A DNA stretch of 64,000 bases from contig OZ024754.1 in assembly GCA_964016885.1 (NCBI GenBank), positions 44,950,001-45,014,000 on the forward strand, read 5' to 3'. Position 1 is the stretch's first letter. Each line of letters begins with the position of its first letter. The notes below the pieces were generated by a model. That model did no database searches and was not told where the DNA came from. It saw nothing but the letters and a program-made list of their open reading frames with translations. The position numbers were made by a program, and so were the translations under genes. This DNA is from Eledone cirrhosa. Lineage: Eukaryota. This document shows, piece by piece, positions 13,784 through 50,997 of the stretch.

Positions 13784-15255
13784 ATTTAATTGATCACAAG
13801 AATATCTATTTTGTTAATATTTTAATTAATATTAATAACTCTGGAATATATTTACTTGTAGAGTGCTTCCAATCTACTGTAAAACTCATTCTTTGATGTA
13901 ATCATTGAATCTTGTTTAACTCTTTAATATATATATATATATATATATATATATATATATATATACCATTTTTGCCATTATATACTCTGTCTGTGCATAG
14001 AGTGCTTGATTTGGTACCTACCTCAATATTTCACCATATTACCTGCACTATATGTATTTATATATGTATATACACACACACACACACACACATATATATA
14101 TATATACACACACACACATACATATATATATATATATATATACACACACATATATATATATATATATATACACACACATATATAGTACAGAGGTAACGGA
14201 GACTTAGAAAATGTATAAATATTTTTTATTCAATGACACGAAATAAATTCTTTTTTTTTTTTTTCAGAATGGCAATTAATTAATTATTAGTGATTGTAGT
14301 CCAATTAAATGAGCAAGATAACAGGTATAGTTTAGATGAAAGGCTAGTAACACCGCCAAATATCCAGGTAACCGGGAAATATCTAATTCTCTATAATATC
14401 TACCAATCATTACTATAGTCTCTCGTCACACCTGCGTCACGTGTTTACTGATCCTTGCTACTATAACATCGTGTGAAGTTATATCGAAGGTTTGACGGTG
14501 TGTGTGTGTGTGGTCTACTGTGTGTGTGTGTAAGTTATACCGAAGGTTTGACGGTGTGTGTGTGGTCTACTGTGTGTGTGTGTAAGTTATACCGAAGGTT
14601 TGACGGTGTGTGTGTGTATTGGTGGTCTGCTGTGTGTGTGTGTGTGGTCTACTGTGTGTGTGTTGTGTGGTCTACTGTGTGTGTTGTGTGGTCTACTGTG
14701 TGTGTTGGTGGTCTGCTGTGTGTGTGTGTGTTGTCTGCTGTGTGTGTGGTCTACTGTGTGTGTTCCTATTGTCATTCTGGTGTTTGTGGTGGTGTGATGT
14801 ATGTTGCTGTTATTGTTGATGTTGTTTATGATTGATGATGATGATGATGGTGGTGGTGGGGTGCGTTTGAGTGTTGTAATGGTTGTTGGTGTGTTTGTGT
14901 TGTTTTACTATGAATGACAAGAATCAGAGAGAAAGAGAGAGAGAGAGAGAGAGAGAGAGAAAGAGAGAGAGAGAGAGAGAGAGAAGACTCGTATAGACAC
15001 ATACACCTAGAAAGTTGTCATGTGATCTAGTGTTTAATGTCGCTATGTTTCACCCAGGTAGCCCTAATTCCATTCCCGCCACCACCTGGCCATATATATA
15101 TACACACACACACACACACACACACATATATATATATATATATATATATATATATATATATATATATATATATATATATATATATATATATATATACACA
15201 CACACACACACACACACACACACATATATATATATATATATATATATATAAAAAA

Positions 15256-15372
15256 CATGAGAAGAAAGAAGGAAGAATACTGCGTGGTTTGCACATGGGT
15301 TACATATGATAAAAATAGTCCTTCGTCAGTGATTTTCCAACCATCATTGGTATTTCATCGCATTAAAAATCA
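15256..15372 (-). mobile_element. Family E (TA)n-embedded element; other copies at 19253-19352 and 38503-38615
   Basis: Shared CTGCGTGGTT..ACATGGGTTACATA..TCRTCAGTGATTT..CCAACCATCATTGGTATTTCAT. Confidence 0.6.
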
Positions 15373-16340
15373 TATATATATATATATATACACACACACA
15401 CACACACACACACACACACACACACACATATATATATATATATATATATATATATATATATATATATATATATATATATATATATATATATATATATATA
15501 TATATATATATATATTTATATATATATATATATTTATATATATATATTTATATATATATATATATATATATTTATATATATATAAATATATATATATAAA
15601 TATATATTTATATATATATATATATATATATAAATATATATAAATATATATATATATATATATATATATAAGAAAGGTATAGAAAGTATTGTAGCAAGAA
15701 GCCAACAGTATTCCATAATATATATATATATATATATATATAAATATATATATATAAATATATATATATAAATATATATATATAAATATATATATATATA
15801 TAAATATATATATATAAATATATATATATAAATAAATATATATATATAAATATATATATATAAATATATATAAATATATATATATAAATATATATATATA
15901 TATATATATATATATATATATATATATATATGCAAATAATATTTCAAGATAAATAGACTCTTGTCATGCTTGAACGATTTTACGCCAGAAATAGAAAGAC
16001 ACACAAAATGGACAGCAGATAGAATGGGTTAGAGATAGGATAGAGAAGGACAGATGAGAGACAGAGAGAGAGACATACAGAAGTACAGAGAGAGAGAGAG
16101 AGGGAGAGAGAGAGAAAGAAGAGACGGAAGAGGAAGACGAAGATGTAGAGAGAGAGGTAGAGAAAGATAAGAGGAAGAGCGAGAGGAAGATGGGAAAAGA
16201 GAGAGAGAGAGAGAGGGGGAGAGAGAGAGAAAGAGAAACAGCAAGAGAGAAAGAGAGGAAGAGAAAGAGGAAAATGAAGAGAGGAAGATGTGAGGAAGAG
16301 GAAGAGAGGAAGATGTGAGGAAGAGGAGTGGTTCTCTTAC

Positions 16341-16839
16341 CTGAATAATTATCAAAGGCTGTCGGTACGTACTCTGTTGGGTATCCATTGGTCGTATAAC
16401 TAACAATCAAACTAGTCTTGCCTATAGCACCGTCACCTACCAACACACACTTCACTTTAGGGGGCTGTGGACCATGAGGATCTTGGCCTTCTTCTGTTTG
16501 TTGTGATTGTGATTGTTGTTGTTGTTGGGTTATATGTAGGTGATGTTCTAAAGGTGAGGGCATGATAGATGCTGAAGATGTTGATGATGATGATGCTGAC
16601 GACGAAGCGCCATTTCCGTAATCGGATGTAGACGCCGAGAAGGAGGGCGACGGCAGCGAAGACACCCCACTACTACTTCCCCCACCACCACCACCTCCTC
16701 CGCCGCCGCCACCGGCCCCACCCCCACTACTACCACTAACGCCACTGCTGCCACTAACACCACTGCTTGCACCACCACCACCTCGTTTTACAGAGAATAA
16801 GTTGGTGTTTTGATGCTCCATGGTGGCTTGTGGAGGCAT
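16341..16839 (-). CDS. RHOU: RhoU/RhoV-like GTPase, coding exon 1
   Basis: ATG at 16839 gives MPPQ, the start seen in vertebrate RhoU. A long Gly/Ser/Gln extension precedes [37 protein letters not shown] (P-loop and switch I). Donor G|gtaaga at 16341/16340. RhoU versus RhoV orthology cannot be resolved. Confidence 0.93.
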
Positions 16840-49407: not shown

Positions 49408-49660
49408 GCGTGGCGAATTGGTAGCGGTGTTAGAAAGTTGGATAGACTGTCTTACAATATTCGTTCTGTCTCCCTGCGTTTGTGTTCAAATCACGCCGAG
49501 GTCAACTTTACCTTTCATCCATTCGATATCGATATAATATATTCTGGCTCAATACTGGGGTGGATTCTTCCTCCTCAATCTCCCTTTCTTTCTCCCCTTC
49601 TCTGGAAGAAATCGGTTGTGTTCACACGCAGAAAGGGGACGACTTCCGTCAGATTTAAAG
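49408..49660 (+). mobile_element. SINE, alternative-tail subfamily
   Basis: GTTCAAATCACGCCGAGGTCAACTTT...CTCTGGAAGAAATCGG. Confidence 0.7.
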
Positions 49661-50779
49661 GGCTCAACATACGCCATTGGTCCTCTAGGTTTAGCGTGCA
49701 GTATTGCCAACCATCAATGTGTGTGTGTGTGTGTGTGTGTGTGTGTGTGTGTGTGTGTGTGTGTGTTAGTGTGTGTATGTGTGTGTTGGTGTATGTGTGT
49801 GTTGGTGTGTGTGTGTCAGTCTATCTATATCTATTTGTCTATCCACCTGTCTGCCTCTCTCCCCCACCTCTCTCTCTTTATATATATATATATATATTTC
49901 GTTTCTGAATTTGTTTAGCAAGATTCTTTATCTGAAATATATATATATATATATACATATATATATATATATTCACGAAGAGAGAGATAGAGAGAGAGAG
50001 AGTATATGAGCGAGGACTAGACATATATATATTTATATATATTCAGAAAGAGAAAGAGAGAGTGTATGAGAGTGGTATATCCATTATATATATAGATATA
50101 TACATATCATATATACATATAATATATACATATACATAATTGGGTTATGACAATATTTACATGAGAATTCAACAAGAAGACATTACTAGGAAAAACCCAG
50201 AATGATATAAAAGGTATATAAATCAGACATCGAAGAGGAAAGGGAAAAAAACAAGTGAAAGAATGATTAATAAACACACACACACACACACACACACACA
50301 CACACACACACACACACACACACACACACACACACACATATATATATATATACATAAATAAATAAATATATAAATACATAAATATATAAATACATAAATA
50401 TATAAATACATAAATATATATACAAATACATAAATAAATATATAAATATATATATATAAATACATACATAAGTATATAAATATACAAATATATAAATATA
50501 TAAATAAATAAATATATAAATATATGTATATATAAATATATAAATATATATACAAATACATACATATAAATATATAAATATATAAATATATAAATAAATA
50601 TATTATTGTATCATATTGTTCTCTTTCATTCTGTGTTGCTTTCTTTATTCCCGTAAGTACCGGTTGTTGTTAAAGATCCAACTTTTCTTTTTTATAAAAA
50701 CTTCTAACGTGGTAGAAAACACAAACAAATGTATATATATATATATATATATATATATATATATATATATATATATATA

Positions 50780-50997
50780 TAGGAACGAGTAGGACCCCGA
50801 CGGCTGAGCTCAAGCCGTTTCGACGGCTAATTCTGGACTAGAATTAGCCGTAATTCTTAGTCCAGAATTAGCCGTCGAAACGGCTTGAGCTCAGCCGTCG
50901 GGGTCCTACTCGTTCCTATTACCCACTCTACTACCCTAAGTATTGAGTACTTTGGTGCGTTATGGTCCACCTGGTTCCTTACCACATTTCCTTCGTT
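50780..50997 (+). mobile_element. Family B palindromic element, best preserved copy
   Basis: Arms 50780-50840 and 50858-50918; GAAA(50877)-cggct..agccg-TC-ggggtc; tail; (TA)n flanks. Confidence 0.75.

Follow-up and report, generated by a model that had tools for sequence, protein, structure and literature searches.

The DNA analysed here, a window of 64,000 nucleotides (nt) from Eledone cirrhosa (contig OZ024754.1, positions 44,950,001 to 45,014,000), contains short fragments lying between (TA)n tracts, often as head-to-head pairs, in each of which a whole or partial type I hammerhead ribozyme is followed by the same small hairpin. What does this hairpin do in families with such different ribozymes? 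A first-pass annotation had listed ten copies and proposed a mobilisation element such as a 3'-end signal. All ten are present at the coordinates and strands listed, except that the one at 18186 terminates in GAGTACC and so lacks the final T of the motif. The pattern ACTC-N11-22-GAGTRCT has 10 matches in the window (the other nine listed sites and 3463-3489 on the minus strand), versus none for the reversed pattern and a third-order Markov expectation of 0.27 (maximum 2 in 100 simulations). The hairpin proves to occur, usually in two copies, in the retroelements described below, and insertions end a few nucleotides 5' of one copy or the other.

As judged from their sequences, the carriers of the motif are end fragments of Penelope-like retroelements of the Hydra clade inserted in (TA)n. 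According to the part of PMC8557442 consulted, this clade is marked by RW(K/R), DKT in place of DKG, a CxCX5C linker, the lack of CCHH, and CxxC and CxH close to the C-terminus. Family B (family letters are labels of this analysis) continues in full-length copies, such as the unit at locus L101, into one open reading frame (ORF) of 717 amino acids with YRDD and VIY...YIG, which fits a telomerase-like reverse transcriptase with a C-terminal GIY-YIG endonuclease. Its protein has CNCPDRSIC (the CxCX5C linker), PCNLC, and ACKH near the C-terminus, and no cysteine pair between the GIY and YIG parts (CCHH is absent); RWR, RWK or RWI is found in 5 of the 5 rows that cover the region and DKT in 6 of 6. 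A predicted hammerhead in the repeat and (TA)n insertion are also present, several cores being variant (U3-A8 in family B). Tandem units measure 3.53 kilobases (kb) in family B and 3.02 kb in family H; the clade source says "generally" under 3 kb. A 130-amino-acid family B query returned 11,711 candidates, and the 150 of these that were scored are 95–100% identical. In the protein model of family B (predicted local distance difference test score 93), the best fold matches are telomerases: residues 1–480 align to telomerase 6zdq with Z 17.0 and a root mean square deviation of 4.0 over 355 aligned residues, including part of the RNA-binding region. Pfam returned no family for either of two proteins queried, a sequence search of solved structures returned one irrelevant match (E 0.35), and IMG/VR contained no relative. 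No RNA record is listed for family B, which is uninformative on expression.

Protein queries and patterns linked 16 families to ORFs: B, C (loci L281–L294), F, G, H, H2, A1 (L265, L277), A2, E (L267), Q, Q2, R, S, T, U and V. Family D had no ORF link in 6 matches, and the family at 13984 is likewise unlinked. Searches for full-length C and F that excluded TA after the end gave mostly other microsatellites or nested copies; C was linked later by another route. Protein identity across the 16 families and seven metagenome relatives is 26–78% (median 39%), so these families, which had been described as otherwise unrelated, are instead distant relatives, all Hydra-type wherever an ORF could be linked. 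The protein tree comprises this genome's families and the metagenome relatives only. Unlike tandem non-coding retrozyme units, the copies in the window are fragments, single or inverted, that belong to ORF-linked families (the exceptions being D and the family at 13984, which are unlinked). A multicopy composite (L168–L170, L176, L177, L200–L205) was also observed, in which a family C tail, microsatellites and a family R end are nested together; its family C tail has the hairpin variant GCTC/GAGT, and the composite sometimes flanks pieces of Hydra ORFs as long inverted arms.

Full-length elements have the order hammerhead, site 1, first hairpin (HP1), 35–69 nt, site 2, second hairpin (HP2), ATG, where the sites are the positions at which insertions end. 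HP2 lies approximately 13–62 nt before the ATG in most families, and truncated copies are without it. A pattern that joins the HP2 3' arm to the codons of an N-terminal K(N/D)IP had 2,360 matches versus 17; the ten families found in this way all carry HP1, which the pattern did not require. The other six families were identified independently of this pattern: B, F, H and H2 have a clear HP2, and that of C and G is degenerate. The tail-only fragments, which had been noted to retain the motif, are real: the one at 37160-37230 spans from 9–10 nt before the hairpin to the second end site.

The positions of the insertion ends carry most of the argument. In the 16 ORF-linked families, 378 distinct 3' ends abut (TA)4 or more: 158 fall 3–14 nt before HP1, 162 fall the same distance before HP2, and 58 fall elsewhere, with most ends 6–8 nt 5' of either hairpin. 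Only 68 of 442 reference TA steps lie within these windows, and the interiors of the tails, which contain a separate set of 68 TA steps, have no end at any of them. When the modal offset is taken for each family, the medians are 7 and 6.5 nt. Family B is sharper still: of its 101 ends, 34 lie precisely 8 nt before HP1 and 53 lie 6 nt before HP2. In DNA chosen blind (the window and 38 other stretches), 84 of 97 ends are accounted for (39 at HP1 and 45 at HP2). Read contigs, from one sequencing run that is probably the source of the assembly itself, have loose (TA)n ends at L101:1285 (75 contigs) and L101:1365 (313 contigs), and their depth drops approximately 300-fold past the latter. Of 23 pieces that end at site 2 and have a TA tract at their start, nine begin 0–16 nt before HP1. 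Fixed rulers fail as explanations of these positions: the interval between HP1 and site 2 is anywhere from 35 to 69 nt, and that between the hammerhead cut and ACTC from 25 to 59 nt. The 37–52 nt spacing from cleavage reported for families B, C and D holds (cleavage to GTATT is 40 nt in B, 36 and 41 in C, and 51 in D); in the A group the same distance is greater (77 nt at 13838), so ribozyme and motif are not a fixed distance apart.

The two sites are combined in inverted pairs. Both ends lie at a site in 66 of 149 such pairs: 65 join site 1 to site 2, one joins site 2 to site 2, and none joins site 1 to site 1. Loci fetched by tail patterns cannot show the last combination, so the argument is carried by the blind-chosen subset (40 pairs seen), in which 17 of 17 classifiable pairs are site 1 + site 2 (p about 7e-6 under independent site choice). 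HP1 thus marks the end of tail-less arms, and HP2, which is present only in full-length elements, marks the end of tailed arms. Of 27 pairs compared in family B, the longer arm is that of site 1 in 12 and that of site 2 in 6, and the two are equal in 9 (lengths are approximate, having been obtained with BLAST over palindromic sequence); nearly all of these arms pass the hammerhead cut, and most stop 40–62 nt above site 1. The pair data fit two complementary DNAs (cDNAs) primed from two target ends on uncut RNA, and fit one fold-back cDNA poorly. Separately, most truncated family B arms stop in the region of hammerhead stem II (L101:1200-1270; window 18614-18650 and 50860-50905), as if the folded ribozyme stalled the enzyme.

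The hairpin has the form RCTC-stem-loop-stem-TT-GAGY-RCT. ACTC does pair with GAGT, as first proposed, but this description left out the upper stem, the 3' bulge of 2 nt and the RCT on the 3' side. In an alignment of 27 hairpins, 91.4% of cells are paired and 42 changes are two-sided; none of 500 shuffles was as good, and slid controls gave 24–54%. The outer pair of the lower stem RCTC/GAGY is A-U in 10 of 27 and G-C in 14 of 27. CTC/GAG is invariant, so it gives no covariation signal, and it was also part of the selection. Counted over 36 hairpins (38 minus the degenerate second copies of C and G), the upper stem is paired in 86 of 108 cells versus 55 when permuted, the bulge is TT in 27 of 34, and RCT follows in 27 of 36. 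Loop length ranges from 3 to more than 60 nt. Conservation is limited to the hairpin: the flanks of different families resemble one another no more than shuffled sequences do (median z 0.37 and 0.54, with 4 of 120 pairs above 3 in each set). In family B, the minimum-energy fold of L101:1291-1393 pairs the HP1 5' arm with the HP2 3' arm, an alternative long-range pairing that could switch both hairpins off or on.

The hairpin is also kept in elements of other animals. A metagenome search by protein alone found 11 loci, and all five with sequence before the ORF start carry it, although their proteins are only 31–37% identical to that of family B; one of the five has two hairpins, and another has the hairpin in both repeats, after the hammerhead. 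A sixth locus has it in an inverted arm ending in (TA)n. Of six published Hydra consensus sequences (PMC8557442, as far as that source was available), inspected by eye, four have the hairpin: it is clear in two sea-cucumber and one coral consensus and variant in a copepod consensus. In Hydra-1_Ajap, the 5' untranslated region (UTR) opens with two hairpins, and the 3' end of the consensus breaks off directly ahead of the first one. Neptune-like elements of this genome, so labelled from a reading of the CxxC linker and DKSG, had the hairpin descriptor in none of 8 ORF-linked 3' ends, 3' ends being the only part compared. Those with hammerheads (L043, L090, L119, L040, L192) end sharply at one sequence before (TA)n, several reading ...AAGTATAACAA, and their 5' UTRs may hold a different end signal.

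From these patterns we consider it rather probable that each hairpin docks the reverse transcriptase and sets an internal start just 5' of itself. It likely acts in RNA rather than in DNA. HP2 lies 3' of site 2, so cDNA begun at site 2 never contains it; HP2 must therefore act in the template or in DNA begun further downstream. The template would be read-through RNA across the junction of repeat and ORF, uncut at the hammerhead, and the hairpin would be bound by the telomerase-like N-terminal region of the protein. The endonuclease would cut (TA)n, and the freed 3' end would anneal to the UA step 6–8 nt 5' of a hairpin. The two cut strands would likely prime at the two sites, probably via two protein molecules, and a tailed and a tail-less arm would be joined head to head, the tail being whatever separates one start site from the other. 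If copying begun at site 2 came to a halt at site 1, a tail-only piece would result. Somewhat short of an even chance, in our estimate, is the fuller version in which two reverse transcriptases work on one RNA and both cut (TA)n ends prime at two programmed internal sites. The earlier suggestion of a cis-acting signal that sets the 3' end is thus supported by the fixed short distance to the ends, the restricted conservation and the persistence in other animals; its form is revised, since the hairpin is duplicated and the ends lie 5' of it rather than at a fixed distance 3' of it.

Several observations weigh against docking at two hairpins. The canonical hairpin is not always present at the second site: HP2 is degenerate in C and G (no GAGY and no bulge), yet site 2 is sharp there, and in L221 there is one hairpin before the ATG, with a downstream repeat that ends approximately 9 nt after it and no second hairpin. 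In 10 of the 16 families, HP2 came from a pattern that contained its 3' arm. Ends of family R are scattered (21 of 37 outside the windows), and 12 of 27 family G ends also fall outside, mostly at a TA tract within its UTR. The 3–14-nt windows were chosen after the data had been seen, many of the loci in B, C and F had been retrieved with tail patterns, and 83 of the 149 inverted pairs had an unclassifiable end. Single hairpins have little thermodynamic stability (-2.3 to -10.8 kcal/mol, z -2.6 to +0.25), as might be expected of a site that a protein stabilises, though this proves nothing, and the hairpins as drawn do not appear when the whole regions of B, F, G and H are folded. The asymmetry between G-U and A-C is slight (9 versus 4–5), so covariation does not fix the strand. 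Among the published consensus sequences, the hairpin is doubtful in that from octopus and absent from one incomplete coral consensus.

The motif could instead be read as DNA, with the GIY-YIG endonuclease cutting at the TA step 6–8 nt upstream and so resolving an intermediate at two places. Craig et al. attribute the tail to endonuclease resolution of an intermediate (PMC8557442, part consulted), and the D. virilis tail is reported to be needed for endonuclease recognition (PMC11167929, excerpts); CTC/GAG is invariant, the ends are at TA steps, and some site-2 pieces begin just before HP1, as given above. We nonetheless think this improbable: arm spacing of approximately 9 to more than 70 nt and an upper stem that covaries without sequence conservation suit a folded single strand rather than a duplex site, and a hairpin in cDNA would need copying begun downstream of HP2, past the drop in read depth at site 2. 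Less probable still is that the hairpin causes RNA to be cut or terminated 6–8 nt upstream, after which the enzyme would begin at ordinary 3' ends of RNA in the manner of long interspersed nuclear elements. Identical end positions would be expected from this as well, and RNA-seq read ends occur at initiation sites (PMC11167929, excerpts). In the Poseidon element PAc, however, an extended RNA 3' end left the product in place, a demonstration of internal initiation (PMC11167929, excerpts); strict 1 + 2 pairing would be unexpected from two independently processed RNA pools, and the hairpin had no Rfam ribozyme match.

A role in expression (translation, splicing, promoter or hammerhead folding), with ends that follow nearby TA microhomology, might be suspected from the proximity of HP2 to the ATG and from the AT-rich sequence before both hairpins. 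It is very unlikely in our view, since the other TA steps of the tails have no ends and since the distances to the ATG and to the hammerhead cut vary while the distance to the ends is constant. As for the hairpin being the last recognisable trace of a common ancestor, or chance, amplified with the elements, the families are indeed related, copy number alone explains the genome-wide count given below, and part of the conservation is built into the selection; yet the flanks have decayed to shuffle level while the hairpin persists at 31–37% protein identity. The comparison that the first-pass annotation had proposed for this case was run and did not return residual homology alone. This explanation is largely refuted here, and we give it hardly any credence.

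The elements described here agree in several respects with known systems. In the available parts of the sources, the selection of start sites and the origin of inverted arms with a one-sided tail are stated as unsolved for Penelope-like elements (PMC11167929; PMC8557442). The Hydra clade of Craig et al. (PMC8557442, part consulted) shares with the elements here RW(K/R), DKT, CxCX5C, the lack of CCHH, the repeat hammerhead, (TA)n targets, inverted arms and the one-sided tail; that part describes no conserved hairpin, its tails are 30–40 nt versus about 66–133 nt here, and element abundance here is far above that of the few families listed. In PAc (PMC11167929, in the excerpts available), the tail is bounded by two internal sites at which reverse transcription begins; both strands of AT-rich targets are cut and extended, the RNA used is uncut, with no need of hammerhead cleavage, and a cis RNA region 3' of the start is required, all of which resembles what is seen or proposed for the elements here. 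PAc starts in an AC-rich stem-loop inside the ORF, whereas the sites here are in the 5' UTR; those excerpts define no conserved or duplicated signal, and the RNA letters of its Fig. S1 are without RCTC/GAGY-RCT. A self-priming fold-back model (PMC3846280, excerpt) accounts for the same head-to-head arms and optional tail, but a single fold-back from site-2 cDNA cannot yield a site-1 arm that is the longer of the two, as is the case in 12 of the 27 pairs of family B, so the data favour two primings.

Animal non-LTR (long terminal repeat) retrozymes are short, hammerhead-bearing and related to Penelope repeats (PMC7229834; 10.64898/2026.07.22.740005; both in part), and the parts consulted do not describe this hairpin. 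They consist of tandem non-coding units (PMC7229834, in part), whereas the window copies are truncated ends of coding elements. Family C end pieces are also repeated at spacings of 191 and 211 base pairs (bp) (C4:279229176-279229892 and C3:36232104-36232383), a likeness to retrozymes (PMC7229834, in part) that reads like a retrozyme arising from a coding element. Rfam gave no match relating the hairpin to known RNA signals. Other reverse transcriptases are positioned by RNA signals: telomerase RNA stems, through the RNA-binding domain, and hepadnavirus epsilon are protein-bound bulged stems that set the start of copying, and L1 twin priming uses two target strands on one RNA. Here, by comparison, a signal would fix the site of both primings, and it is located 3' of what is copied.

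The elements, hammerheads, tail and inverted arms are already known; the cis-acting hairpin signal in this clade, its duplication and its register to the ends appear to be new. No description of these three was found in the literature searched, figure images and some closed papers being outside its scope. Hairpins that act as start signals would likely explain both the one-sided tail and the back-to-back shape of the insertions. If correct, this would be signal-directed double-priming integration, a minimal relative of RNA binding by the telomerase domain, conserved across several animal phyla. A signal of 20–30 nt with a fixed offset to both ends makes the question of start sites testable by mutation. 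Penelope-like enzymes form telomerase's sister group, so an RNA docking stem, once defined, would model RNA binding in that lineage. Such a start signal, being portable, could also allow the copying of any RNA into (TA)n sites. The hairpin also serves as an annotation marker for well over 100,000 fragments in this genome.

Across the 3.0-Gb genome, the motif has 158,917 matches versus 12,913 for the reversed control, and GTATTGAGTACT has 65,308 versus 238; high copy number alone could produce the genome-wide motif count. A covariance model built from 27 hairpins (three from the window and the rest from the same families) found 13 sites in the window, every one in the same type of fragment. The list of ten sites was sound but incomplete: 3463, 38307, partial sites at 32634 and 51324, and the long-loop hairpin at 31743-31826 are to be added (Table 1). 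Hammerheads were called by descriptor scans and by eye, several cores being altered; a strict type I descriptor failed to detect families B and C and the D plus arm, and one of its matches, at 29672, is probably false. Rfam 15 had no match at gathering score to either hammerheads or hairpin, and at a low threshold the best 150 of 354 matches were repeat-driven and nearly all to microRNA models. A general repeat search of the window was dominated by microsatellites.

Some matches to the bare pattern were set aside as false positives. A dispersed repeat with a transfer RNA-like head has a ACTCAGCTG...ATGAGTRC core stem that fits the pattern (L089:4778, L100:4697, L111:6541, L114:9577), a resemblance that may be either coincidence or shared design. 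A few others are single matches without an upper stem. The site at 55137-55164 is motif-like with a long loop and is followed by a local duplication (55179-55381); the covariance model does not recover it. A resemblance to the 3' end of twister was dropped, as there was no Rfam match and no other twister part.

Table 1. Positions in the window of hairpin-bearing fragments and related pieces
Feature	Position	Strand	Remarks
Family B inverted pair	3418..3615	.	HP1 3463-3489 (-); outside range of first-pass annotation
Family A1 inverted pair	13502..13927	.	Minus arm 13502-13641 ends at site 1, before HP1
Family A1 hammerhead cores	13556-13607 (-), 13727-13778 (+)		Predicted by descriptor scan
Family A1 plus arm	13694-13927	+	Ends at site 2
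Family A1 HP1	13838..13867	+	ORF-linked family
HP1 in tail-only fragment (~13966-14050)	13984..14006	+	Family without ORF link
Family C fragment	18114..18251	+	Variant hammerhead; HP1 18186-18207; ends near site 2
Family B fragment	18614..18745	+	Hammerhead 3' half; HP1 18674-18700; ends at site 2
Family A2 inverted pair	19353..19759	.	Minus arm with HP1 19375-19397; tail interrupted by other fragment
Family A2 plus arm	19616-19759	+	Ends at site 1
Family C fragment	25050..25177	+	HP1 25122-25144; inverted piece 24910-24954
A-group tail-only fragment	29074..29170	-	HP1 29135-29158
Family G inverted pair	31328..31873	.	Minus arm ends at site 1, plus arm at site 2
Family G long-loop HP1	31743-31826	+	Absent from earlier list
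Diverged B-type fragment	32566..32689	+	HP1 3' arm 32634-32645
A1-type arm	32781..32883	+	Hammerhead 32789-32827; stops at site 1; without hairpin
Family D inverted piece	33294..33476	.	Hammerhead core 33314-33351 (-); HP1 33430-33452 (+)
Family E tail-only fragment, site 1 to site 2	37160..37230	+	HP1 37169-37191, 1-nt bulge
Family B inverted pair, site 1 + site 2	38185..38378	.	HP1 variant 38307-38333 (+)
Family U fragments	45781..45883	.	Plus piece has 3' arm of long-loop HP1 and ends at site 2
Family B inverted pair, site 1 + site 2	50779..50996	.	HP1 50925-50951 (+)
Family B inverted pair	51276..51430	.	Minus arm from inside HP1 (51324-51335) to site 2; plus arm ends at site 1

A second short family, with no hairpin match, also lies between TA tracts (15251-15369, 19266-19353 and 38505-38618), and one of its copies substitutes for the tail of the A2 arm at 19353. 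The window further contains a 33-bp tandem array of approximately 34 copies and an array with a period of approximately 88 bp (10028-11151 and 56033-57082, respectively). At approximately 16300-16950, on the minus strand, an exon encodes a long low-complexity N-terminus and then the beginning of a protein that resembles Rho-family GTPases; this gene, with its introns, probably takes up much of the window.

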